Shown in pieces: positions 2,245 through 48,528 of a DNA stretch of 64,000 bases. Where the stretch lies: positions 16,046 through 80,045 of the forward strand of contig JACPCX010000185.1 of assembly GCA_016184305.1 (NCBI GenBank), read 5' to 3'. Within the stretch, counting starts at the first letter, position 1. Every line of letters begins with the position of its first letter. This DNA comes from Candidatus Rokuibacteriota bacterium (lineage in GTDB: Bacteria > Methylomirabilota > Methylomirabilia > Rokubacteriales > CSP1-6). A program made the translations under genes and the position numbers. Under the pieces are notes generated by a model. That model ran no database searches and was not told the origin of the DNA. It saw nothing but the letters and a program-made list of their open reading frames with translations.

Positions 2245-2553
2245 CTACCCGAAGATCTTCTTGAGCCCGCCGAGGAAACCGCTTCCCTCTCCTTGCGCGA
2301 GCACCTGGTCCAGCTCGCCGTAATCGAACCAGAGCCCCCCGCAGGCCGAGCACTTGTCCAGCTCCACCTTGCGGTACGTGATGGTCACCAGCGGCGCGGC
2401 GCACTTGGGGCAGCGGTTACGGGCCACCGCGAGCACGCGCTGCCGCTCCGCCGCCTCGGTGCTGCTCTCGGCATCGGCCAGCACCTTCTTCCGCCGCTCG
2501 AACTCGAGCCGCGCGAAGTACTCCTCTTCCTGCTCGCTGGGTGTGACGGGCAT
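2245..2553 (-). CDS. Zinc-ribbon domain protein (TFIIB-type zf / COG3809-like)
   Basis: 102 aa. Four-Cys ribbon CPKC...CSACGGLWFDYGELD. GAGGGAGGG Shine-Dalgarno upstream. Confidence 0.75.
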   Translation of the reverse strand: MPVTPSEQEEEYFARLEFERRKKVLADAESSTEAAERQRVLAVARNRCPKCAAPLVTITYRKVELDKCSACGGLWFDYGELDQVLAQGEGSGFLGGLKKIFG

Positions 2554-2633: not shown

Positions 2634-2930
2634 CTACGTGCCGGTCTCGCGCTCGTACTTCGTCTTCCAGTCCTTGTTGAGATCCTCGACGCCCGGGATG
2701 ACCTTGATGGTGCTCCACGCGGCGCGGGCCGCGCCGCGCATGGCGTAGTAGAGGGTCTCGCTCAGCTCGTCGTCGGTGGCTCCGGCTTGCTTCGCGGCCG
2801 CGAAGCGTCCGGGCACTCAGGACGTGCAGCCGGCCGCCGCCATGGCGGCCAGCGCCACGAGCTGCATGGTCTTGGGGTCGAGGGCCCCCTCCCGGTAATA
2901 CAGACTCGCGAACTCCTTCATCTCGGCCAT
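2634..2930 (-). CDS. AhpD-like / carboxymuconolactone decarboxylase family protein with in-frame TGA (candidate selenocysteine, C-T-S-U motif)
   Basis: Track ORFs 2634..2816 and the tail of 2817..3686 share one frame and are separated only by TGA 2817..2819. The joined 98 codons follow the family pattern LDPKT..L..A...AAGCxx[C/U]....A...GATDDEL. ATG 2928..2930 has AGGAGGG 5 nt upstream. Confidence 0.65.
2782..2812 (-). promoter_or_regulatory. SECIS-like hairpin immediately 3' of the in-frame UGA
   Basis: mRNA reads UGA GUG CCGG-ACG-CUUCGC-GGCC-GCGAAG-CAAG-CCGG: 4-bp lower stem, internal loop, 6-7-bp upper stem, G-containing tetraloop about 18 nt after the UGA. Confidence 0.5.
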
Positions 2931-2980
2931 TGGTCCCTCCTGGGTGTGGGTGGTGGCATGCCGGGTCAGTATACCCCGCG

Positions 2981-3715
2981 CTACAGGTCTCGGACGAGGC
3001 GGCGGGCGCGATCCAGGTTCTTCCGGTAGGCGTCGAAGGAGTTCTCGAGCTGCGGCGGTCGGCCCGATCGGCGGTCGAGCGTGAAGCACGAGAAGGTGAT
3101 GTCGTGGGCCAGCGGGAAATCCCGGTAGAGATGGCCGGAGACCTTCTGCGGGTTCTCGGAGCGGGTGATCTCGAAGTCCTCGTGCTCCCGGAGCGGGGGG
3201 ATGCGCTCCCCGTGCTTGGTCCGCACCCACTTCATCGTGCCCCCGAGGAGGTAGGAGAGGAACAGGCAGTCCACGAGCATGGACTCCGTCCAGGGGATGG
3301 CCTTCTGGTATCCGGCAACGAAGCGGGCGCCGGTGCGGACGAGGAAGTCGCGGGCCGTGTCCGGCGTCACGAAGTCGCAGGCCCCGAAGATGTAGCCGAT
3401 GCGGCGACTGAGCCGGCAATGCTCGACGAGGGCGGAGAGCCGGATGACACGGTTGCCGATGCCCATCAGGGTGCGCCGCTTCCCATGGGAGGCGATGTAG
3501 CAAACCTGGAAGGAGGATCGCCGCCGGCGCACCTCCTCCAGGAGCAGGCCCAGGTCGTAGTTGCTGTAGAAGCGGCGATAGACGAGGTTGACGCGGATGC
3601 CCTCCCAGGCGAGTGACTGCTTGATGGCCTTGAGGTAGGGCAGCACCGAGGGCTCGTCCTCGAGGAGCTGCCCCTGCCGATTCCACATGGACTCCAGCAC
3701 GACGAGACCGGGCAT
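2981..3715 (-). CDS. Hypothetical protein with caspase-fold/CHAT-like His-Cys dyad
   Basis: C-terminal 244 aa of track ORF 2981..5446, from ATG 3713..3715. ...FQVCYIASHGKRR... (His77-Gly) and ...IGYIFGACDFV... (Cys113), then GARFVAGYQKAIPW. Visibly lower GC than its neighbours. Confidence 0.6.
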   Translation of the reverse strand: MPGLVVLESMWNRQGQLLEDEPSVLPYLKAIKQSLAWEGIRVNLVYRRFYSNYDLGLLLEEVRRRRSSFQVCYIASHGKRRTLMGIGNRVIRLSALVEHCRLSRRIGYIFGACDFVTPDTARDFLVRTGARFVAGYQKAIPWTESMLVDCLFLSYLLGGTMKWVRTKHGERIPPLREHEDFEITRSENPQKVSGHLYRDFPLAHDITFSCFTLDRRSGRPPQLENSFDAYRKNLDRARRLVRDL

Positions 3716-3782: not shown

Positions 3783-3829
3783 CTGTACTTTCGTTGAGAG
3801 CTGACGAGAATGGCTGGTATGGTGGGGCC

Positions 3830-5365
3830 ATGAGGATTCCTCTCGAACGGGGAGCAGTCGGGGGTGGGCGAGTCCCGCTGTCCCGCCAGATCCAGAGCCA
3901 CCTCGAGCGGCTGATCAAGGAAGGGAAGCTGGCCCCCGGCGTCAAGCTGCTGGCCACCCGGGAACTGGCGCACGATCTCGGGGTCAACCGGACCACCGTG
4001 GCCACGGCCTACGAGGAGCTGATCGCCGCGGGCTGGGCCCGAGCGCATGTGGGGCAGGGCACCTTCGTCGCGGAGCGGGTGCCGGCCTTCGGGGAGCCGG
4101 CCCCCATCAGCGCGCAGAAGCTCGATTGGTCCGGGTTCCTGTCCAAGCGGGCGCAGGTCGTGGCCGCCGACATGCACCGGCGACGGGCCTACGGCCAGCT
4201 CGCCCGGCCGGCCCCCGGCACCATCTCCTTCGCCGGCGGCATGCCCGACAGCACACTGTTCCCGACTGACGCGTTCCGCCGGGTCCTCAACCGGGTCATC
4301 ACCCAGGAGGGGCGAGAGCTGCTCCAGTACTACGCTCCCGGAGGCTACCCGCCGCTGCGCCGATACCTGGCGGGCTATCTCCTGCGCTTCGGGGTCGAGG
4401 CGCGCCCGGAGGAGATCCTCATCGTCAATGGCTCGCAGCAGGGCTTTGATCTCGTCGCCCGCACCCTGCTCGATCCCGGTGATCTGGTGGCCATCGAGCA
4501 GCCGTCCTACCCGCGCGCCATGCAGGTGTTCCGCTCGTTCGGGGCAGCGCTCGTGCCGGTCCCGCTGACGGAGGCGGGGCTCTCTGTGCCCCATCTGGAG
4601 CGTCTGCTGGAGCGCCAGACTCCCAAGCTCCTGTACTGCCAGCCGAGTGCCCACAACCCCACCGGGCTCACCATGAGCCTGGCCGTGCGGCAGCGCCTCC
4701 TCGAGGTGGCGGCCAGGCACCGGTTGCCCATCGTCGAGGATGGCTTCGATGGGACTCTCTTCTATGGCGAGCGCCCCCCGGGCCCGCTCAAGGCCATGGA
4801 CATGGCGGGACTCGTGGTCTATATCGGGACCTTCTCCAAGATCCTCTTCCCCGGGCTCCGGCTGGGCTGGATCGTCGCCCCGCCGGCGCTGATCGAGCGG
4901 CTCGAGATGGCCAAGCAGCTGGCCGACATCCACACGAGCCCGCTGCTGCAGGCGGCCGTCTACCATTTCTGCGAGAGGCGGCACCTGGAGCGGCACCAGG
5001 CGCGAGCGCTCCGGGAATACGCGCGGCGCCGGGAGACGCTCCTGGACGGGCTTCGCCGCCTCATGCCGCCCGGGGTCACATGGACCGAGACCGCGGGAGG
5101 ATTCTCGCTGCTGCTGACACTTCCCGAGGGCCTGGAGACGGCCGCCCTGCTCCCGCGAGCGCAGGCGCGCGGGGTGACCTTCACGCCTGGCGATGCCTTC
5201 TTCATCGACGGCGGGGGCGAACGCTCGCTCCGGCTCTCCTTCTCGGCCGTGCCGGTGTCGCAGATCGACGACGGGATGAAGCGGCTCGGGGACGCGATCC
5301 GGGATCTCGGGCGTCACCCCGACCACGCGGCGCGCGAGCCCGAGCTCTCCGTGCCCCTCGTGTGA
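3830..5365 (+). CDS. MocR/PdxR-type GntR family regulator with aminotransferase-like domain
   Basis: N-terminal wHTH ...LLATRELAHDLGVNRTTVATAYEELIAAGW... plus a fold-type-I PLP domain (...TFSKILFPGLRLGWIVAP...). ATG 3830 preferred over the track start at 3794. Confidence 0.85.
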   Translation: MRIPLERGAVGGGRVPLSRQIQSHLERLIKEGKLAPGVKLLATRELAHDLGVNRTTVATAYEELIAAGWARAHVGQGTFVAERVPAFGEPAPISAQKLDWSGFLSKRAQVVAADMHRRRAYGQLARPAPGTISFAGGMPDSTLFPTDAFRRVLNRVITQEGRELLQYYAPGGYPPLRRYLAGYLLRFGVEARPEEILIVNGSQQGFDLVARTLLDPGDLVAIEQPSYPRAMQVFRSFGAALVPVPLTEAGLSVPHLERLLERQTPKLLYCQPSAHNPTGLTMSLAVRQRLLEVAARHRLPIVEDGFDGTLFYGERPPGPLKAMDMAGLVVYIGTFSKILFPGLRLGWIVAPPALIERLEMAKQLADIHTSPLLQAAVYHFCERRHLERHQARALREYARRRETLLDGLRRLMPPGVTWTETAGGFSLLLTLPEGLETAALLPRAQARGVTFTPGDAFFIDGGGERSLRLSFSAVPVSQIDDGMKRLGDAIRDLGRHPDHAAREPELSVPLV

Positions 5366-13215: not shown

Positions 13216-13677
13216 ATGCGTATCGCCAACCTGATCACCGCGGCGATCCTCGCCGCGGCGGGCGCGCTCGTCCTGGTGGACGCCGTGCGCCTGGGGACCG
13301 GTTGGGGGACGGACGGGCCTCAGAGCGGCTTCTTTCCGTTCTGGCTCGCCGTCCTCCTGATCGGGTGTTGCCTGGCCATCGCGGCCCAGGCAGTCAGGCT
13401 CACCCTGCCCGTACCCTTCGTGACGCGCAAGGCGCTGGGCCCGGTGCTCGCGGTACTGGGCCCGGCGGCCGGTTTCGTCGTGCTCACCCAGGCCATCGGC
13501 CTCTACGTGGCCTCGGCGCTCTACATGGGCTTCTACATGCGGTGGATCGGCCGGCACTCATGGACAGCCGTCGTGGCGCTCGCCATCGGGTTCCCCGTGA
13601 TCACGTTCCTCGTCTTCGAGAAGTGGTTCCTCGTGCCCATGCCCAAGGGCCCGCTCGAGACCTGGCTGGGGTACTGA
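13216..13677 (+). CDS. tctB: Tripartite tricarboxylate transporter small membrane subunit TctB
   Basis: 153-aa hydrophobic four-helix protein between tctC and tctA. Confidence 0.85.
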   Translation: MRIANLITAAILAAAGALVLVDAVRLGTGWGTDGPQSGFFPFWLAVLLIGCCLAIAAQAVRLTLPVPFVTRKALGPVLAVLGPAAGFVVLTQAIGLYVASALYMGFYMRWIGRHSWTAVVALAIGFPVITFLVFEKWFLVPMPKGPLETWLGY

Positions 13678-26958: not shown

Positions 26959-27084
26959 ATGGCCATGACGATCACCAACGACGGGAACTCCCAGGCCCAG
27001 CCGCGTCCGGCCTTCGCCCAGGAGATCAGGGCGGCGGGTGGCCTGATGAACGACGTGGCGAAGACGAAGGGGCGGGTCGCCTAG
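26959..27084 (+). CDS. Hypothetical small ORF (41 aa) between leuA and leuB
   Basis: Below the track cutoff. ATG 26959 to TAG 27082..27084: [43 protein letters not shown] third-position bias. No recognisable family. Confidence 0.3.
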
Positions 27085-27086
27085 CC

Positions 27087-28172
27087 ATGCCCACCTACAG
27101 GATCGCGGTGCTGGCCGGTGATGGCATCGGCCAGGAGGTCACACCGGAGGCCCAGCGTGTCCTCGATGTGATCGGCAAGGCCACGGGAGCAAGTTTCGAG
27201 TTCGAGACGGGCCTGGTGGGCGGGGTGGCCATCGATGCCACGGGCGGACCGCTGCCGGAGTCCTCGCTCCGTCTCTGCGAGCAGAGCGATGCGATCCTGT
27301 TCGGCGCCGTGGGCGGGCCCAAGTGGGACTCGCTGCCGCACGAAACCCGCCCCGAGCGCGGGCTGCTCCGGATCCGCAAGGAGCTGGACCTGTTCGCGAA
27401 CCTGAGGCCCGCCAGGTGCTTCCCCATGCTGGTGGATGCCTCCCCCCTCAAGCGGTCGGTGGTCGAGGGGACGGATCTCATGGTCGTCCGCGAGCTGACG
27501 GGCGGGCTCTACTTCGGCGAGCCGCGGGGGCGCGAGGCCTTCGCCGACGGCAGCGAGCGGGCGGTGAACACCATGGCCTATACCTCTCGAGAGATCGAGC
27601 GGGTCGTCCGGGCGGCGTTCGACGTGGCCATGAAGCGGAAGAAACGGCTCACCTCCGTGGACAAGGCCAATGTGCTGGTGGTGTCCCAGCTCTGGCGCGA
27701 GGTGGTGATCCGCGTGGCGAAGGAGTACCCCCAGGTGACCGTGGAGCACGTCCTGGTGGACAATTGCGCCATGGCGCTCGTCAACCGGCCCACCCAGTTC
27801 GACACGATCGTGACGGAGAACACCTTCGGCGACATCCTCTCGGACGAGGCGGCGATCCTGGCGGGCTCCATGGGGATGCTGCCCTCGGCGAGCCTCGGCG
27901 GGCGCGTGGGCTTGTATGAGCCCGTGCACGGCACGGCGCCGGACATCGCCGGCAAGGGCCTGGCGAACCCCATCGCGGCCATCCTCTCGGCCGCCATGCT
28001 GCTTCGCTACTCGCTGGACCGCGGCCCGGACGCCGACCGCGTCGAGGCCGCCGTGCTCCGCGTGCTCGAGCAGGGCCACAGGACAGGGGACATCGCCGCG
28101 CCCGGCGGCACGACGGCGGGGACGCGCGAGATGGGCGACCTCATCGCCCGCGAGCTCGAGCGATCGTACTGA
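27087..28172 (+). CDS. leuB: 3-isopropylmalate dehydrogenase
   Basis: 361 aa. ...[13 protein letters not shown]...[11 protein letters not shown]...[12 protein letters not shown]... Confidence 0.97.
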
Positions 28173-28191
28173 GAGAAAGGATCCTACGGAT

Positions 28192-29193
28192 ATGAACGGG
28201 GTGCGGGTGGCGGTGGTCGGTGTCACGGGGGCGGTGGGGCAGACGACGCTCAGGATCCTGGAGGAGCGGAAGTTCCCGGTGCGGGAGTTGCGGGCTTTTG
28301 CCTCGGAGCGGTCGGTGGGCAAGACCGTCACGTTCCAGGGGGAGCGTGTCCGCGTGGAGAAGGTGGCGCCCGGGGCCTTCACGGGAGTGGACATCGCCTT
28401 CTTCTCCGCCGGCTCCGCCCAGTCCAGGGAGTTTGCGCCGCAGGCCGTCAAGGCGGGCGCCGTCGTGGTGGACAAGTCCAGCGCCTTCCGCATGGATCCC
28501 ACCGTGCCCCTGGTCGTCCCCGAGATCAACGCCCACGCCGTCAAGGGGCACCGCGGGATCGTCGCCTGCCCGAACTGCACGACCATCGTCACCGTGATGC
28601 CGCTCAAGCCGCTCCATGACACTGGCCGCCTGCTCCGGGTGATCGCCACCAGCTTCCAGGCCGTCTCGGGCGCCGGGGTCAACGGGGTCGAGGAGCTGCG
28701 CAGCCAGACGCTGGCCTGGGCGCGCGGCGAGGCCCTGACGCCGAAGTACTTCCTCCACCAGATCGCCTTCAACGTGATCCCGCACATCGACACGTTCGGC
28801 GAGAGCGGGTACACGGGGGAGGAGATGAAGCTGGTGCACGAGGTGCGGAAGATCCTCGAGCTGCCCGACCTCGCGGTCTCGCCCACGACCGTCCGGGTGC
28901 CCGTGTTCACCGCGCACTCGATCGCGGTCAACGCCGAGACGGCGACCAAGGTGAGCGCGGCCAGCGCGCGCGAGGCCTTCGCCCGGTTTCCGGGACTCCG
29001 GCTCTGGGACGATCCGGCGGAGAATCGCTACCCGATGCCGGTGGCCGTGGAGGGCCAGGACGACTGTTTCGTGGGACGCATCCGCGAGGACCTGTCCCTG
29101 GCCAACGGCCTCAATTTCTGGGTCGTGGGCGACCAGCTGCGCAAGGGCGCCGCGCTGAACGGGATCCAGATCGCCGAGCTCCTGATCCGCTGA
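28192..29193 (+). CDS. asd: Aspartate-semialdehyde dehydrogenase
   Basis: MNGVRVAVVGVTGAVGQ...ACPNCTTI... (active-site Cys) ...RVPVFTAHS... Confidence 0.95.
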   Translation: MNGVRVAVVGVTGAVGQTTLRILEERKFPVRELRAFASERSVGKTVTFQGERVRVEKVAPGAFTGVDIAFFSAGSAQSREFAPQAVKAGAVVVDKSSAFRMDPTVPLVVPEINAHAVKGHRGIVACPNCTTIVTVMPLKPLHDTGRLLRVIATSFQAVSGAGVNGVEELRSQTLAWARGEALTPKYFLHQIAFNVIPHIDTFGESGYTGEEMKLVHEVRKILELPDLAVSPTTVRVPVFTAHSIAVNAETATKVSAASAREAFARFPGLRLWDDPAENRYPMPVAVEGQDDCFVGRIREDLSLANGLNFWVVGDQLRKGAALNGIQIAELLIR

Positions 29194-30029: not shown

Positions 30030-30788
30030 ATGCGGACCTACCTGCGGGTGAGCCGCGGCCGGCTCGAGGAGGTCAAGGCCGAGGTTGTGCGCGAGCAGCT
30101 GCTCGCGATCTACGTCAACGGCAGTCGCTTCCTCACCCTCCTCTGCTCCCCCTTCCAGCTCGAGGCGCTCGTCGTCGGCTACCTGTGGATGGAGAAAGTG
30201 ATCGCGGGCCTCGAGGACATCGTCTCGCTGGACGTGTCCGACGTGGACGGTCGGGCGGACGTCACCCTGACGCAACCCGTGGAGCTGCCCACGGCGCGGA
30301 TCCTCACCTCCGGGTGTGGCGGCGGCATCACCTTCCGCATCGACCCGCGACTGTTCACGCGCGTCGAGTCCTCGCTGCGCGTCCGGCCGGCGCAGCTCGC
30401 GGCGCGGCTCAAGGATCTCTTCGTCGAGGCCATCCACTACCGCGCCTCGCGGGGCATCCACGGCGCGGCGCTCACCGACGGAGAGCGCCTGCTGGTGGTG
30501 GCGGAGGACGTGGGACGGCACAACGCCGTGGACAAGCTCAAGGGGGAGGCGCTGTTCCGGGGTGTCCCCACCACTGACCGCGTCCTGCTGTCCACGGGCC
30601 GGATCTCCTCCGAGATGCTCCTGAAGGCCGCCCGCATGGGCGTGCCGGTGGTGGCCTCTCGCACCTCGCCGACCGAGATGGCCGTGGGGCTCGCCGAGCA
30701 GCTCGGGGTCACGGTGGTCGGCTATCTGCGGCCCGACACGCTCAACCTGTACACCGGTGACGCGCTGGACCTCGGCGAGCTGTCCTGA
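30030..30788 (+). CDS. fdhD: Formate dehydrogenase accessory sulfurtransferase FdhD
   Basis: 252 aa. ...SGCGGG... ...EDVGRHNAVDKL... ...SGRISSEMLLKAARMGVPVVASRTSPT... Confidence 0.9.
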   Translation: MRTYLRVSRGRLEEVKAEVVREQLLAIYVNGSRFLTLLCSPFQLEALVVGYLWMEKVIAGLEDIVSLDVSDVDGRADVTLTQPVELPTARILTSGCGGGITFRIDPRLFTRVESSLRVRPAQLAARLKDLFVEAIHYRASRGIHGAALTDGERLLVVAEDVGRHNAVDKLKGEALFRGVPTTDRVLLSTGRISSEMLLKAARMGVPVVASRTSPTEMAVGLAEQLGVTVVGYLRPDTLNLYTGDALDLGELS

Positions 30789-39551: not shown

Positions 39552-39699
39552 GCAGGATGCGGAAAAACTCCGCAGGGCGCTCAAAAAGGTCCAGGTGCGA
39601 GGCGGCGAGGGATGCGACGAGCGAGGCGTACTCCGCTTGGCGAGCCGAGCCGGAGGCGAGGTGAGCGGATCCGGAGATCCGGGCGAGCGTGAGCGAGCC
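39552..39699. repeat. Mosaic repeat element (copy B; inverted relative to copy A at 1114..1282)
   Basis: GCAGGATGCGGAAAAACTCCGCAGGGCGCTCAAAAAGGTCCAGGTGCGAGGCGGCG...GCGAGGCGTACTC...GGATCCGGAGATCCGGGCGAGCGTGAGCGAGCC. Contains the actB GTG start. Confidence 0.75.
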
Positions 39700-42598
39700 G
39701 GAAACGCTCCTGCCGTACGTCTCGCCCCCGGAGAACATCGTCCCCGGGATCGCCGCCTACTTCTCGACCGTCTGCCGCGAGTGCCCCGCCGGCTGCGGCG
39801 TCGTCGCCAAGAACCGGGACGGCCGCGTGATCAAGCTCGAGGGCAACCCCGATCACCCCGTCAATGCCGGCGCCCTCTGCATCCGCGGGCATGCGGCGCT
39901 GCAGGGGCTCTACCATCCCGACCGTTTCCGCGGCGCCCTCGTGGGAGGCAAGGCCGCCAGGTGGGAGGACGCCGAGAAGCCGGTCGTGGACAAGCTCTCG
40001 GCGCTCGCCAAGGCGCGCCAGGGGAGCAGGATCGCCGTCGTGAGCGGGCTTGAGGCGGGCAGCCTCGCCCGGCTCATGGACGAGTGGACCCGGGCGCTGG
40101 GCGCGCGCGCCCGCGTCGCCTACGAGCCCATCGGCTACGAGGCCCTCCGCGCCGGGAACCGGATCGCCTTCGGGCGAGACGCGATCCCGGACTACGCCAT
40201 CGGAGACGCCACCTATCTCGTCTCCTTCGGCGCCGACTTCCTCGAGACGTGGCTCTCGCCGGTGGGCCATGCGTCGGACTTCTCGCGGATGCACGCCTTC
40301 GCGCACGGACGGGCGGGCACGTTCGTCCACGTGGAGCCGCGGCTGTCCATGACGGGCGCCAATGCCGACCGGTGGGTGCGGAACACCCCCGGGACGGAAG
40401 CGCTCCTCGCGCTCGGCATGCTCAAGGTGATCCTGATGGAAGGGCTCCAGGTGCCGGGGGCCGACGCGAAGACGCTGGGCGCCGCAGTGCAAGGGGTGGA
40501 AGTGGCCGCCATTGCCGCGGCGTCCGGGGTGGAGGCCGCCACCATCAAGCAGATCGCCCACGACTTCGCGGCCTCCAGGGGGGGCTTGGCCATCGGCGGC
40601 GGGATCGGCGTCTCGGGCGGCAACGCCACCGACACCCAGGTCGCGATCAACCTGCTCAACGCCGCCGTCGGGGCCGTCGGCACGCGCATCCGGTTCGGCA
40701 GCGATTCCGTCGCCGGCACGGCGAGCCCGTATGCCGACATGGTCGCGCTCACCCAGGCCATGGCGAAGGGCGAGATCGAGGTTCTGGTGCTCGGGGACGT
40801 GAACCCCGTCTACAGCATGCCCGCCAAGTCCGGATTTGCCGAGGCCCTGGCCAAGGTGCCGCTGGTGGTGAGCCTGGCCGGCCGCCCCACCGAGACGACC
40901 GCAAAGGCGCATGTCGTGCTGCCCGTGCTGCACTGGCTCGAGTCGTGGGGCGATTACGCCGCCGAGGAGGGCGTGGTCGGGCTCATGCAGCCGACCATGG
41001 GCCCCGTGGAGATCGATGGGAAGCCGGTGGAGGGCAAGAGCACGGGCGACATCCTCTTGTCACTGGGCCGCCAGGCCCTCGGCAGCGAGCAGGGCAAGGG
41101 TCCCCTCCCCTGGGCGAGCGTCGAGGATCTCGTCAAGGAACAGTGGAAGGCGCTGGCCAAGCAGGCCGGCCGCGACAAGGACGTCGCCTCCTTCTGGGAG
41201 CAGTCGCTCCGCAAGGGCGGGGTCTTCAGGCAGGCGCCGCCGCCAGCGGTGGCGCTCAGACCGGAGGCCGCGCGCCTCAAGGCCGAGCCCGCGAAACTCG
41301 AGGGCTCGGGATCGCATGCGCTGCTCGTGTACCCGTCCCATCGCTTCTTCGATGGGCGCGGCGCCGACAGCCCGTGGCTGCAGGAGGCGCCTGACAGCAT
41401 GACGCAGGTCACCTGGGACGGCTGGGTGGAGATCCCGGCCGAGACCGCCAGGACGCTGGGGGTGAGTCGGGGTGATCTGGTGGCGCTCACGTCGCCCCAC
41501 GGGAAGATCGAGCTGCCCGCGTACCCATCGGAGTCGCTCCATCCGGGCGCCGTGGCGGTCGCCATGGGGCAGGGGCACGAGTACGGCGGCCGTTACGCGA
41601 AGCAGCGCGGCCTCAATGCCGGCGCCAACCCGATGCGGCTCCTGGGCGGGACGCCGGAGGCCGCCTCCGGAGGCCTGCCCCACCTGGCCGTGATGGTGGA
41701 CCTCGCCAGGACGGGCGCGCGCCGCGCGCTGGCGATCCCGCAGTCCACGCACGACCAGGACGACCGCGAGATCGCCCAGCACGTGTTCCTCGCCGCGGCC
41801 AAGGAGATGGAATTGCGCGGGCGGCCCCCGGAGCAGGCGAGCCACCCGAGCATGTACCCGCCCGTCAAGTACCCCGAGCACCGCTGGGGGATGACGGTGG
41901 ACCTCGACACGTGCATCGGCTGCCAGGCCTGCGTCGTCGCCTGCGTGGCCGAGAACAACGTGCCGGTGGTCGGCAAGGAGCAGGTGGCCTACGGCCGCGA
42001 CCAGCACTGGCTGCGGCTCGAGCGCTGGGAGGAAGGCCAGGCGAGCCACCCCGAGAACATCTTCCTCCCGATGTTCTGCCAGCACTGCGGCGTGGCGCCC
42101 TGCGAGCCGGTTTGCCCGGTCTACGCGGCCTACCACACCCAGGAGGGGCTCAACGGGCAGATCTACAACCGCTGCGTCGGCACCCGCTACTGCGGCAACA
42201 ACTGCCCGTACCACGTGCGGCGCTTCAACTGGTTCTACTACACGTTCCCGTCGCCGCTGGATCTGCAGCTCAACCCCGAGGTCACGGTGAGGCAGCTGGG
42301 CGTCATGGAGAAGTGCACCATGTGCGTCCAGCGCATCATCCACGGGAAGGACGCGGCCAGGGACGCGGGCCGGCCGGTCCGGGACGGCGACATCCGGACG
42401 GCTTGCCAGGAGACCTGCCCGACCCAGGCCATCACCTTCGGCGATCTCAAGGACGACCGCGCGGCGGTATCCAGACTCTCCCGGTCGCCGCGGGGCTACC
42501 ACGTGCTGGAGGAGCTCGGCACGCAGCCGGCGGTGACGTACCTGAGAAAGGTCGTCCGGGAGTCCGGGCTACCGCCGGCGAAGGGCCACAAGGCATGA
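39689..42598 (+). CDS. actB: Alternative complex III subunit ActB (molybdopterin-oxidoreductase-like domain fused to a 4Fe-4S protein)
   Basis: 969 aa. N-terminal Cys cluster ...CRECPAGCG...C.. plus MopB-like body. C-terminal ferredoxin part CIGCQACVVACVAENN...CQHCGVAPCEPVCP...CVGTRYCGNNCPY...CTMCVQR. Followed by NrfD-like ActC. Confidence 0.88.
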   Translation: MSEPETLLPYVSPPENIVPGIAAYFSTVCRECPAGCGVVAKNRDGRVIKLEGNPDHPVNAGALCIRGHAALQGLYHPDRFRGALVGGKAARWEDAEKPVVDKLSALAKARQGSRIAVVSGLEAGSLARLMDEWTRALGARARVAYEPIGYEALRAGNRIAFGRDAIPDYAIGDATYLVSFGADFLETWLSPVGHASDFSRMHAFAHGRAGTFVHVEPRLSMTGANADRWVRNTPGTEALLALGMLKVILMEGLQVPGADAKTLGAAVQGVEVAAIAAASGVEAATIKQIAHDFAASRGGLAIGGGIGVSGGNATDTQVAINLLNAAVGAVGTRIRFGSDSVAGTASPYADMVALTQAMAKGEIEVLVLGDVNPVYSMPAKSGFAEALAKVPLVVSLAGRPTETTAKAHVVLPVLHWLESWGDYAAEEGVVGLMQPTMGPVEIDGKPVEGKSTGDILLSLGRQALGSEQGKGPLPWASVEDLVKEQWKALAKQAGRDKDVASFWEQSLRKGGVFRQAPPPAVALRPEAARLKAEPAKLEGSGSHALLVYPSHRFFDGRGADSPWLQEAPDSMTQVTWDGWVEIPAETARTLGVSRGDLVALTSPHGKIELPAYPSESLHPGAVAVAMGQGHEYGGRYAKQRGLNAGANPMRLLGGTPEAASGGLPHLAVMVDLARTGARRALAIPQSTHDQDDREIAQHVFLAAAKEMELRGRPPEQASHPSMYPPVKYPEHRWGMTVDLDTCIGCQACVVACVAENNVPVVGKEQVAYGRDQHWLRLERWEEGQASHPENIFLPMFCQHCGVAPCEPVCPVYAAYHTQEGLNGQIYNRCVGTRYCGNNCPYHVRRFNWFYYTFPSPLDLQLNPEVTVRQLGVMEKCTMCVQRIIHGKDAARDAGRPVRDGDIRTACQETCPTQAITFGDLKDDRAAVSRLSRSPRGYHVLEELGTQPAVTYLRKVVRESGLPPAKGHKA

Positions 42599-44458: not shown

Positions 44459-44961
44459 TGAAGTACGTGTTCGGCCTGGTGTTGCTGGTGGTGGGCGGCG
44501 TCGTGGCCGTGCAGGGCGGGGTCCTCGTGATGCGCTGGAACGACAACATGACGCAGACGGCGCGGGTCATGCCGGGCGAGCGGGCCTTCGCGATGCCCGC
44601 GAGCAGCGTGCCGCGCTCAGGCGGCGAGCTGTACTACCCCAAGGAAGAGCGGGAGGCGGCCGCTGCGCGGAAGAACCCGGTCCCGGCCACCCTCGAGTCG
44701 GTGAACAAGGGGGGCGCGCTCTACGTCGTCTACTGCACCCCGTGCCACGGCGCCGCGGGCAAGGGCGACGGGCTGGTGACGCCCAGGTTCGTGCCGCCGC
44801 CAGATCTCACCAACGCGGACCTTCAGAAGGGCCGCACCGACGGCTACTGGCAGAGCTATCTCGGCGTGGGCGGCGCGATCATGCCCTCCTACGGCGAGGC
44901 GCTCTCGCCCGAGGAGCGCTGGCACGTGGTGAACTACGTGAGGAGCCTGGCGCAGAAATGA
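44455..44961 (+). CDS. actE: Alternative complex III monohaem cytochrome c subunit ActE
   Basis: N-terminal TM/signal segment; single CTPCHG haem motif; distal Met region ...GGAIMPSYG... Confidence 0.85.
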   Translation: MMKYVFGLVLLVVGGVVAVQGGVLVMRWNDNMTQTARVMPGERAFAMPASSVPRSGGELYYPKEEREAAAARKNPVPATLESVNKGGALYVVYCTPCHGAAGKGDGLVTPRFVPPPDLTNADLQKGRTDGYWQSYLGVGGAIMPSYGEALSPEERWHVVNYVRSLAQK

Positions 44962-46088
44962 CCCCGACAGCCTCGACCGCACAACCGCCGCAGGGGTCGC
45001 AGGCGGTCCTCGTCGCGCTCGCCGTGGCGGGCGCCGCCGCCTTCGTCTACGGCATCATGCAGCCTCAGCCGACCCGCGCCTGGGGGATGTACCTGGTCAA
45101 CCTCCTCTTCTGGTCGAGCCTGGCCATCACGGGACCGGCGCTGGCCGGGATGATGCAGCTCACCGAGGCGCGCTGGTCCCCGAGCGTGAAGCGGATCGCG
45201 CTGACCACGGCCGGCTTCCTGCCGATCTCGTTCGTCCTCTTCCTGATCCTCTTCGCCGGTCGGTCGGTGCTCTACCCGTGGGTGACGACGCCTGTGCCGG
45301 TGAAGGCGGCGTGGCTCAACGTGCCCTTCATGTCGCTCCGCATCGGTCTCGGCGTGGCGCTGCTCTACTGGGTGGCGCTTCGCTTCTCCCGGGCGGTGTT
45401 CGACGAGCAGACGGGCGCCGCCGACAGCGCCGAGGCCCGCAACCGCCGCAACCGGCTGGCCACCGCGCTCCTGGTCCTCTTCGTGGTGGTGCTGTCGCTC
45501 TGGGGCTTCGACCTGGTGATGTCCCTGGATCCCAGGTGGTTCAGCGGCCTCCTGGGCGGCTACTACGTGGTCAGCACGCTCTACACGGGCTTCGGCCTCG
45601 TGACGTTCCTCACCATCCGCGCCAACGCCCGCGGGCTCACCAGCGTCTCGCCGTCCGCCATCCAGGATGTGGCGAAGCTCACCTTCGCCATGTGCGTCAT
45701 GTGGATGTACTTCTTCTTCTCGCAGTACCTCGTGATCTGGTACGGCAACGTGCCCGTGGAGACCAAGTTCTTCCTGCGGCGCTTCTTCAATGACCCGTGG
45801 CGGACGATGGCCTTTGTCATCTTCATCGTGGGCTGGCTCGTCCCCTTCGGCTACCTGCTCAAGCGGCTCACGGGACGGCCGCCCACGGCCCACAAGCCGC
45901 TGGTCGTGATCCTCTTCATGGGATGGGCGGCCATCTTCCTCGAGCGGATCCTGCTGGTCTTCCCGGCGCTCGCGCCGGACGACGTCTTCCCGTTCGGCCT
46001 GATGGAGATCCTCATCACGGCGGGGTTCTTCGCGCTCTTCGCGCTCGGCCGCAACCGCTTCCTGTCCCGCTACGGGCCCCTCCTGTAG
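44958..46088 (+). CDS. actF: Alternative complex III membrane subunit ActF (NrfD-like)
   Basis: 376-aa polytopic protein starting MTPTASTAQPP... ATGA overlap with actE. Confidence 0.82.
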   Translation: MTPTASTAQPPQGSQAVLVALAVAGAAAFVYGIMQPQPTRAWGMYLVNLLFWSSLAITGPALAGMMQLTEARWSPSVKRIALTTAGFLPISFVLFLILFAGRSVLYPWVTTPVPVKAAWLNVPFMSLRIGLGVALLYWVALRFSRAVFDEQTGAADSAEARNRRNRLATALLVLFVVVLSLWGFDLVMSLDPRWFSGLLGGYYVVSTLYTGFGLVTFLTIRANARGLTSVSPSAIQDVAKLTFAMCVMWMYFFFSQYLVIWYGNVPVETKFFLRRFFNDPWRTMAFVIFIVGWLVPFGYLLKRLTGRPPTAHKPLVVILFMGWAAIFLERILLVFPALAPDDVFPFGLMEILITAGFFALFALGRNRFLSRYGPLL

Positions 46089-46253: not shown

Positions 46254-47477
46254 GTGATCTCCGTCGAAGAGGCCCTCGATCGCATCCTCTCGCGCGTCTC
46301 CGTCCTCGGAGACGAGCGCGTGCCGCTGCTCGCAGCCCTCCACAGGGTCCTCGGCGAGCCGGTGACGGCGGGCCTCGACATCCCGCCCTGGCCCAACTCG
46401 TCCATGGACGGCTACGCCGTGCGCAGCGCCGACACGGTGGGGGCGACCTCCGAGCGTCCCGCGCGGCTCACGCTCGGGGGGCGCGTGCCGGCGGGAGGCG
46501 TGGCCGAGCGGGCGCTCCGGGCCGGCGAGGCCTTCCGCATCTTCACCGGCGCGCCGCTTCCCGAGGGCGCCGACAGCATCATCCCGCAGGAGGACGTGAC
46601 GGCGGATGGCGGCACGGTCGGGATCGGCCGTCTCGTGCCGCCCGGGGAGTGCGTGAGGCCCCGGGGCGAGGACATGCGAGCCGGTGACATCGTGCTCGAG
46701 CGCGGGCGCGTGCTGGGGCCGGCCGAGATCGGCCTGCTCGCCACGCTCGGGCATCAGCCGGTGCGGGTGGTGCGGCGGCCCGTCGTGGGCATCCTCTCCA
46801 CGGGCGACGAGCTCGTGGATCTGCCGGGCGCACTCGGCCCGGGCCAGATTCCGAACTCGAACACCTACGCGCTGATGGCGCAGGTGCTCGAGGCCGGCGG
46901 CGAGCCCGTGAGCCTGGGAATTGCGCGCGATCGGCTGGACGACATCGTCGAGCGGCTCTCCTGGGGGCTCGGCTGCGATCTCCTCATCTCGTCCGCGGGC
47001 GTGTCCGTGGGCGAGCACGATCTCGTCAAGGCGGCGCTCGGGCGGCTCGGGGCCGAGCAGCACCTGTGGCTGGTCAACATGAGGCCGGGGAAGCCCGTGA
47101 CGTTCGGGACCATCCCCGCGGGAGCCAAGGGCGCCTTGCCGGTGTTCGGCCTGCCGGGCAACCCGGTGTCCGCCATGGTCACCTTCGAGCTCTTCGTCCG
47201 TCCGGCCATCCTGCGGGTGGGTGGTCACGCGCGTCTGTCGCGTCCCGTGATCTCCTCGCGCGCGCTCCTGCCGATCCCCAATCCGGGGCGCCGCCGCGGC
47301 TATCTGCGGGTGACGGTGACGCGAGGGGACGGCGGATACGGCGCGCGGCTCACGGGCGACCAGGGCTCGGGGATCCTGCGCTCCATGGTCGCCGCCGACG
47401 GTCTGGCCATCGTCCCCGGGGATACGACGGTGGGGCGGGGCGAGGACGTCCAGGTCATGCTGCTCAGGGAGCTCTGA
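46254..47477 (+). CDS. moeA: Molybdopterin molybdenumtransferase MoeA
   Basis: 407 aa. ...SVEEALDRIL...PPWPNSSMDGYAV...IFTGAPLPEGAD...GDELV...IPNSN...SAGVSVGEHD...PGNPVSAMVTF... Confidence 0.94.
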   Translation: MISVEEALDRILSRVSVLGDERVPLLAALHRVLGEPVTAGLDIPPWPNSSMDGYAVRSADTVGATSERPARLTLGGRVPAGGVAERALRAGEAFRIFTGAPLPEGADSIIPQEDVTADGGTVGIGRLVPPGECVRPRGEDMRAGDIVLERGRVLGPAEIGLLATLGHQPVRVVRRPVVGILSTGDELVDLPGALGPGQIPNSNTYALMAQVLEAGGEPVSLGIARDRLDDIVERLSWGLGCDLLISSAGVSVGEHDLVKAALGRLGAEQHLWLVNMRPGKPVTFGTIPAGAKGALPVFGLPGNPVSAMVTFELFVRPAILRVGGHARLSRPVISSRALLPIPNPGRRRGYLRVTVTRGDGGYGARLTGDQGSGILRSMVAADGLAIVPGDTTVGRGEDVQVMLLREL

Positions 47478-48528
47478 GGAAGAGCGCCCAGAGGGCCAGC
47501 CAGGCGCCGAGCGCCATCGAGGCGAAGGTGACGAGGCTGCCGACGCTGAGCGTGGCGGAGTTGGTCAGTCCCTGATTGATATTGCACCCCTCGGCGAGAA
47601 GGGCCGCGCCGCCCATCAAGAGCCCTCCCCCGAAGATCTTCAGGAGGCTCCACCCCGGAGGCAGCTTCAAGCGGAAGTCGCCCGCCCGCCAGGCTCCCGC
47701 GAAGGCGCCCACAGGCACGCCGAGCAGCATCACCATGCTCCAGGTGACCTGGGTCGGGTATCCGACGAGCGGGTAGGTGAGCAGGTAACCCGTGTTGGAC
47801 GCGAACGTGATGCCGGCGGGACGGCTCCCGAAGCCGGACGCCCACCAGCCCGCTGCGATCATCACCCCGACCGCGATCCCCGTCATCGGCCACGACCACT
47901 TGCCGTGCTCGGGTTGGGCTCGCTCACGCTCGCCCGGATTCCCATATCCGCCCGCCTCGCCGCGGCGGCCGCCGCTCAGCTGGCCAGGCAGTGGCCGCGC
48001 CAGCCAGACGGCGGCGGAGGCTGCGAGCACCGCGATGACGACCCACGGCGAGACGCCGACGAGCCCGTGGAGCGTCGGCGCCGCACCGCCGAGGGTGACG
48101 GCCGGCGCTTGCAGCCACGTCCGCACCGGGGCCAGCACGCCGACGCTGACGGTGGTCGCGCCCATGGCGAAGCCGAGGAGCACGACGCAGGCTCCGATGG
48201 CGCCCTCGCCGACGCGATACCACGTGCTCCCCGAGCAGCCGCCGGAGAGGATCATGCCCACGCCGAAGAGCCCCCCGCCCAGGATGTTGGCGACCCAGCG
48301 GAACGGCCGGATGGGCACCTCGATGAGTCCGAGCGCCATGAGCGTGTGCACGCCGATCATGGCGACCAGGAGCGCCAGCACGTAGGCGCGGAGGATCGTG
48401 GTGTCTCCCATGAGGACGGCGTTGGACAGCGCGCGCGTGAGACAGAAGCCGCCTCGCTGGAGCACGTACCCGAAGAGGAGGCCGGTGAGCAGCGCCGAGA
48501 CGTACAGGGCCCAGTTGAAGTCGTCCAT
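47464..48528 (-). CDS. yeeE: YeeE/YedE family sulfur-compound (thiosulfate-type) transporter
   Basis: 354 aa, two homologous halves, each with ...GGFC.../...GGCSGS.../...AEGCN... type motifs. The linker contains a repeat-derived segment. Confidence 0.88.
   Translation of the reverse strand: MDDFNWALYVSALLTGLLFGYVLQRGGFCLTRALSNAVLMGDTTILRAYVLALLVAMIGVHTLMALGLIEVPIRPFRWVANILGGGLFGVGMILSGGCSGSTWYRVGEGAIGACVVLLGFAMGATTVSVGVLAPVRTWLQAPAVTLGGAAPTLHGLVGVSPWVVIAVLAASAAVWLARPLPGQLSGGRRGEAGGYGNPGERERAQPEHGKWSWPMTGIAVGVMIAAGWWASGFGSRPAGITFASNTGYLLTYPLVGYPTQVTWSMVMLLGVPVGAFAGAWRAGDFRLKLPPGWSLLKIFGGGLLMGGAALLAEGCNINQGLTNSATLSVGSLVTFASMALGAWLALWALFLRAP
47917..47960 (-). repeat. Class II repeat unit embedded in-frame in the yeeE inter-domain linker
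   Basis: GGCTCGCTCACGCTCGCCCGGATTCCCATATCCGCCCGCCTCGC closely matches the reverse complement of the 23876..23922 unit. Translates within yeeE as ...RRGEAGGYGNPGERERAQP... Confidence 0.7.

Follow-up and report, generated by a model that had tools for sequence, protein, structure and literature searches.

A probable CMD/AhpD-like selenoprotein gene with an in-frame TGA codon followed by a SECIS-like hairpin in Rokubacteria

In a 64,000-nucleotide stretch of Rokubacteria DNA (the whole of it is called the window below), minus-strand positions 2634..2930 were found very probably to be one gene, encoding a 98-residue selenoprotein of the CMD/AhpD-like fold that gene callers mis-split. An in-frame TGA in the middle of this gene almost certainly encodes selenocysteine (Sec). 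At ~97% identity to MGBT01000109.1, a contig from Candidatus Rokubacteria GWA2_70_23, the window represents a strain of that species.

Gene structure, protein family and active site

The complete coding sequence (2634..2930, minus strand) consisted of 98 codons plus TAG and contained one CMD/AhpD-like domain. On the minus strand, the frame ran from an ATG (2930..2928) through 37 sense codons to a TGA (2819..2817), and then through 60 sense codons to the true stop, TAG (2636..2634), as read from both the sequence and its translation. The TGA was codon 38 and in frame, and the read-through product was MAEMKEFASLYYREGALDPKTMQLVALAAMAAAGCTS-[TGA]-VPGRFAAAKQAGATDDELSETLYYAMRGAARAAWSTIKVIPGVEDLNKDWKTKYERETGT. 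Re-reading of the sequence bore out the positions of the ATG, TGA and TAG given in a preliminary description of this DNA, and the peptide given there matched the new translation exactly. An AGGAGGG reported ahead of the ATG was also present, as a Shine-Dalgarno-like sequence at 2941..2935 (minus strand) with a 4-nt spacer to the ATG. The redox motif C-T-S-U was opened by TGC (2828..2826, minus strand), encoding Cys35, which was invariant in the orthologues (TGC in 63 and TGT in 2 of 65 orthologue sequences).

The same description had joined the tail of an open reading frame at 2817..3686 to the piece downstream of the TGA. The shared frame across the TGA held, but the portion of 2817..3686 lying upstream of 2930 was non-coding in that frame. 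It was judged so because a 244-aa gene (2981..3715, minus strand) occupied another frame there and because the residues preceding the Met were unconserved among orthologues; two orthologues had a stop just ahead of the start Met. Scanning of the minus strand for promoters and terminators revealed none.

With Cys put in for the stop, the Pfam CMD domain (PF02627) spanned the TGA, covering residues 10-63 and scoring 51.7 bits (cutoff 23), in agreement with the CMD/AhpD pattern that had been traced across the stop in the preliminary description. The AhpD core domain TIGR00778 also passed, with 29.6 against 27.8 bits. The best three NCBIfam matches were all selenoprotein families (the GSU3128 family, the ArsM/AhpD UU selenoprotein and MduS), and all scored below their cutoffs. 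Membership of the GSU3128 equivalog (NF041047) was rejected at 52.3 bits, the curated cutoff being 110, as was identity with the 4-carboxymuconolactone decarboxylase PcaC (TIGR02425) at 18.7 bits against 155.7.

Sequence relatives in the PDB were small hexameric CMD/AhpD-like proteins (7y4r, 1vke/1p8c, 2ouw, 5dik and 2cwq), and their CxxC aligned residue for residue with C35-T-S-[TGA]38. An AlphaFold model of an 87%-identical Cys form (pLDDT 86) contained five helices, with site 38 capping the helix formed by residues 39-48. When the Cys-form model was compared with the PDB by Foldseek, the top 47 matches were all of the CMD/AhpD fold (TM 0.5-0.58, probability 1.0, E 0.02-3), weak E-values being expected for a helical domain of 98 residues.

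The motif Cys35-Thr-Ser-Sec38 would cap the N-terminus of a helix, at the CxxC place of AhpD-like proteins, with Sec38 occupying the nucleophilic second-cysteine position. The earlier placing of the TGA on the second redox Cys (C-T-S-U) was confirmed by alignment with the CxxC of both Cys homologues and PDB relatives. In MtAhpD, the nucleophilic second Cys is Cys133, activated by Glu118 and His137. The AhpD Glu, which precedes the first Cys by 12 residues, was replaced by Gln in 95% of the orthologues, including the window protein, and was retained in one; the AhpD His, four residues after the second Cys, was replaced by Arg in 100% of them. Cys-type relatives carried the same Gln and Arg substitutions, and both the Glu and the His relay positions were present in all of the aligned PDB relatives. 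The proposed AhpD-like assignment therefore stood as regards fold and family but not as regards the Glu/His relay of a true AhpD, and with this relay missing the protein is AhpD-like rather than a canonical AhpD.

At neutral pH, selenols exist mostly in the ionised form, and the absence of the Glu/His relay would therefore be mechanistically plausible in a protein whose nucleophile is Sec. The protein likely functions as a small thiol/selenol oxidoreductase via a selenenylsulfide: Sec38 and Cys35 would cycle between the selenol/thiol and selenenylsulfide forms, most likely in a small thiol-dependent oxidoreductase or a peroxide-detoxifying protein. A Sec at the nucleophile together with a lost Glu/His pair would offer a small and tractable case of Sec relaxing the requirements of an active site.

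Conservation of the TGA codon

Orthologues were scanned with one genome per GTDB species, which gave 73 loci, nearly all from MAGs of Rokubacteria/Methylomirabilota/NC10. Removal of one broken copy and one unrelated RidA-like protein left 71 orthologous loci. In 71/71 of these, from different species-level genomes, TGA stood at the codon after C-T-S (or C-T-T), and it was replaced by a Cys codon in 0/71. After the TGA, the orthologues shared VPGRFAAAKQAGA(T/S).(D/E)E..., and downstream the amino acids were kept and the synonymous sites were free; for example, Ala+25 was GCG in 33 and GCC in 32 sequences, and Arg+27 was encoded by four codons. Conserved amino acids with varying synonymous sites indicated that the stretch after the TGA was translated in frame and under purifying selection. 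Homologues ending at ...GCTS, the finding that the preliminary description had named as contrary to its proposal, were not seen among the 71 loci, all of which continued in frame and remained conserved past the TGA.

Two MAGs assigned to other phyla, L011 (labelled Candidatus Binatia) and L066 (labelled Nitrospinota), carried nearly identical versions of the gene in which both TGA and hairpin were unchanged. These copies in other phyla could be due to mis-binning or to horizontal transfer.

Cys codons were aligned to the TGA in full-length database homologues: P0001 (87% identical, CTSC) had TGT, and P0004 and P0011 (both CADC) had TGC. The alignment of Cys to the TGA, put forward earlier as a check, was thus seen in three homologues as well as in the CxxC of the PDB relatives. 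The Cys-type homologues were single chains of 98-109 aa. P0004 (109 aa) was located on L075 (1..3457, a Logan SRR22388054 contig), at the end of a phage-like string of genes for Phage_lysozyme, DUF1353, HTH proteins and many small ORFs, and the CMD/AhpD-like gene on this contig may be carried by a phage or prophage.

Four more database homologues showed W, R, G or L at the site, the L being in P0002. Some of these residues could be taken to mean that the TGA is an artefact, owing to decay into a pseudogene, to faulty sequencing or assembly, or to reassignment of the codon to Trp or Gly: W and G appear in database translations (P0010 and P0008, respectively), and two singleton contigs have CGA or GGA. 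The W of P0010, however, is a TGA translated under another code, P0010 standing for a Sec-type member that has diverged further. The R (CGA) and the G (GGA, P0008) were each confined to a single metagenome contig (L083 301..609 and L085 301..534), were one nucleotide away from TGA and were followed by a fully intact SECIS sequence; either uncommon alleles (null or missense) or errors of assembly may explain them. TGA terminated ~30 of 52 crude gene calls in the window and thus most of its genes, indicating a standard code. The TGA moreover recurred across 71 assemblies that were independent and came from different studies, and the sequence to either side of it was under purifying selection; we regard an artefact as extremely improbable.

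A second alternative is that the TGA is a real stop, with a 37-aa peptide ending there and a 60-aa protein beginning at the GTG that follows, by termination-reinitiation at UGAGUG. GTG did follow the TGA in 68/71 orthologues, and annotation pipelines call a 60/61-aa ORF from it. But the next codon was GTA or GCG, neither of them a start, in 3/71 species in which the remainder was still conserved, and the GTG had no ribosome-binding site, the preceding stretch encoding the conserved AAGCTS. Two separate products would also split the CMD domain and the CxxC motif through the active site, whereas the Cys-type homologues were single proteins of 98-109 aa, and would leave the frozen synonymous sites described below unexplained. 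Reinitiation at this place is therefore highly unlikely.

The hairpin downstream of the TGA

Directly after the TGA, the minus strand folded into a SECIS-like stem-loop (2779..2816; 38 nt, -19.8 kcal/mol), which was also obtained as a consensus fold over 44 sequences. A lower stem, CC.GG/CCGG (2816..2810 with 2785..2779, minus strand), was separated by an internal loop from a 7-bp upper stem, GCUUCGC/GCGAAGC (2806..2800 with 2795..2789, minus strand), capped by the apical loop GGCC (2799..2796, minus strand), which was GGCU in most species. The stems and the GGCC loop were as first described, and the distance from the UGA to the loop was 17 nt, close to the ~18 nt given there.

The published bSECIS model has a loop of 3-9 nt, an upper stem of 4-16 bp, G in the first two loop positions, a distance of 16-37 nt from the UGA and an MFE of -7.5 kcal/mol or lower (PMC13188914). 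The hairpin agreed with all of these, having a 4-nt GGCY loop starting with GG, a 7-bp stem, a distance of 17 nt and -19.8 kcal/mol. Comparison with SECIS models, suggested in the preliminary description, thus came out in favour of the hairpin by the published bSECIS model but not by the Rfam SECIS covariance models, which gave no match at the gathering score in the whole window or at E <= 10 in 2700..2900. Bacterial SECIS elements are reportedly dissimilar between genes (PMC13188914), so that an Rfam match is not a strict requirement.

Compared with chance in DNA of 70% G+C, the stability of the fold was modest, with z = -2.0 for the 38 nt, -2.6 for a 22-nt core and -0.6 for a 63-nt context. 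Stability alone was thus unremarkable for the G+C content, and the case for the hairpin rested on comparative data.

In the orthologues, the wobble positions that fall in the upper stem or at the first G of the loop were frozen: CGC in 65/65 sequences (a six-fold Arg codon), TTC in 65/65, GCG in 65/65, GCG in 64/65 and AAG in 65/65. Unpaired wobble positions in the same stretch (CCN, GGN, GCY and GGN) were variable, and in the rest of the gene Arg and Ala codons had an entropy of 0.6-1.6 bits. Among 33 columns, entropy was lowest in the three stem codons with four- or six-fold degeneracy (exact p = 1.8e-4; Mann-Whitney p = 0.003). Compensatory changes in the stem numbered 0 among 44 aligned sequences; the stem being invariant, covariation was absent, and support for specific pairing came from the frozen synonymous sites alone.

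Three further sequences bear on the same constraint. In L074, a close Cys form, synonymous drift had occurred at the frozen bases (GCG to GCC and AAG to AAA) and the hairpin was lost (z = +0.5). In L084, a divergent Sec-type sequence, a C-G pair was changed to U-G, which is compatible with pairing. The more distant Cys-type L075 folded into a stable but different hairpin, which leaves the close sequence L074 as the main Cys-form control. Remnants resembling a SECIS have been reported elsewhere in Cys-type relatives (PMC13582414).

By analogy with the established bacterial mechanism, a ribosome beginning at ATG 2930 would reach the UGA at codon 38, where SelB, with GTP and Sec-tRNA(Sec), would bind the mRNA hairpin directly after it. 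Selenocysteine would then be inserted instead of termination, and translation would go on to the TAG at 2634.

The same UGA and hairpin might also be used to insert cysteine, by a SelC*/tRNA-ReC acting via SECIS/SelB, in which case the finished protein would carry a plain CxxC motif. In some Sec-using genomes, tRNAs of this type read UGA as Cys if a SECIS lies downstream (Vargas-Rodriguez 2018, as cited in PMC13582414), and DNA alone cannot tell the insertion of Sec from that of Cys. They were, however, reported in only ~2% of non-UXXU Sec-type genomes, and, among genomes with UXXU-type hydrogenases, in Armatimonadota, Desulfobacterota and JAPLJL01, Methylomirabilota not being listed (PMC13582414). 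Moreover, 71/71 species kept both the TGA and a costly hairpin; if Cys were the product, a change from TGA to TGY would be neutral and should be common. We consider cysteine insertion very unlikely, and selenocysteine remains the preferred reading of the UGA.

Genomic setting, annotation and relation to known selenoproteins

No tRNA-Sec was detected by ARAGORN in the window or in 60 related loci, no sel gene was found by Pfam annotation of ~40 window genes, and tblastn of approximate E. coli SelA, SelB and SelD queries against ~750 kb of related loci gave no matches, a result of little weight because the queries were approximate and a small part of each genome was covered. For Methylomirabilota, a MAG with 63 predicted selenoproteins has been reported (Deng et al. 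2026, as cited in PMC13188914), and Sec-type group 4 hydrogenases occur in this phylum; selABCD were detected in ~90% of Sec-type genomes overall (PMC13582414).

Other candidates for read-through of an in-frame TGA were sought, and none was convincing in the window or the related loci. One, TctB/TctA at 13675..13677 (plus strand), was rejected as two adjacent genes, TctA resuming in the same frame two codons later. The window also contained, in this order, genes for FdhD/NarQ (30030..30788), a molybdopterin oxidoreductase (39689..42598), MoeA (46254..47477) and a YeeE/YedE-type "sulphur transport" membrane protein (47464..48528). The molybdopterin oxidoreductase (969 aa, fused to 4Fe-4S domains) was encoded by an uninterrupted ORF without an in-frame TGA. 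Selenium transport has been proposed for some YedE-family proteins. Two further long ORFs with coding-like GC3, at 27081..28949 (minus strand, 622 aa) and 44742..46088 (plus strand, 448 aa), had no Pfam match at E <= 1e-5.

The 244-aa gene upstream, present in both NCBI and ENA records, ended 50 nt from the selenoprotein gene and may be co-transcribed with it. Neither Pfam nor PADLOC gave a significant match for it, DUF6642 at E = 0.016 being the only one. With its place beside the selenoprotein gene shared by only 8/71 loci, it is no conserved partner and looked like a lineage-specific insertion separating that gene from the divergent MocR-like regulator. Downstream, a gene for a Zn-ribbon (TFIIB-type) protein (2245..2553, minus strand; PF13453, 58.8 bits) was adjacent in 2/71 loci by tblastn. 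The most conserved neighbour was the MocR/PdxR-type regulator (3794..5365, plus strand; Pfam GntR and Aminotran_1_2, i.e. an HTH and an aminotransferase fold), which is followed by pdxS/pdxT; it was divergent from the selenoprotein gene in 49/71 loci, with PdxS next in 40/71. This adjacency could reflect either regulation or mere lineage synteny. That the orthologues make up a distinct, phylum-wide subfamily of minimal CMD-fold proteins, obligately Sec-dependent, without the Glu/His relay and maybe MocR/PdxR-controlled, seems to us doubtful; if such a relay-free, Sec-dependent subfamily did exist, its chemistry or its partner would differ from that of the AhpC/lipoamide system.

Gene callers split or truncated the gene, as had been anticipated, giving pieces of 37 aa and 60/61 aa or the 60-aa piece alone, and NCBI records for the Rokubacteria species of the window left out the N-terminal part. 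The score below the NF041047 cutoff is probably why the NCBI pipeline fails to rescue the gene. In the protein database, more than 500 clusters (90% identity) of 57-61-aa proteins were C-terminal fragments of the selenoprotein, named "hypothetical protein" or "alkylhydroperoxidase/CMD family protein YurZ" (matches P0005-P0120), and some of these clusters stood for hundreds of member sequences. The gene is thus systematically mis-annotated, the fragments being the C-terminal two-thirds of the selenoprotein. Correcting the annotation would add a conserved selenoprotein to a phylum of soil and groundwater that is reported to have the largest predicted bacterial selenoproteomes, and the 71-species alignment provides a clean, lineage-specific SECIS example that could be used for training predictors.

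The protein is well supported as a CMD/AhpD-like selenoprotein and a further member of a catalogued CxxU class, and the gene brings to light no novel type of system. As the preliminary description had noted, AhpD-like CxxU selenoproteins are already described (PMC2398784, PMC13188914). The GOS catalogue includes "AhpD-like 1" and "AhpD-like 2 (pfam02627, CxxU)" (PMC2398784), CMD-like/AhpD-like 2 selenoproteins (PF02627, CxxU) are known from Sargasso Sea and GOS metagenomes (PMC2398784, PMC13188914), and a 2026 review of the prokaryotic selenoproteome listed four AhpD/CMD-type families (PMC13188914). A literature search found no paper naming a Methylomirabilota/Rokubacteria clade of minimal CMD selenoproteins.

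The CMD-like/"AhpD-like 2" class (catalogue representative MBW1767730.1) likewise has PF02627 above the gathering score, a CxxU in which Sec takes the place of the second Cys, and a SECIS hairpin that follows the UGA directly. The proteins described here differ in forming a clade of Methylomirabilota/Rokubacteria and in being minimal, with 97-102 residues. The GSU3128 family (NF041047, "distant AhpD homolog"), the best NCBIfam match, also has CxxU and a similar length (an 84-position model), but the window protein fell below the equivalog cutoff and is thus a non-member. Like the SECIS of Escherichia coli fdhF, the hairpin lies within the coding sequence, just 3' of the UGA, and has a small apical loop starting with G, but the two have no sequence similarity. 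The same helical fold is found in MtAhpD (1knc) and the small hexameric CMD proteins 7y4r (RclX), 1vke/1p8c (TM1620), 2cwq (TTHA0727) and 5dik. Compared with 7y4r, the window protein is ~25 residues shorter at the N-terminus and has Sec in place of Cys; compared with MtAhpD, it lacks the E-x11-CxxC-x3-H relay but retains a redox pair, C35-T-S-U38, at the CxxC position.
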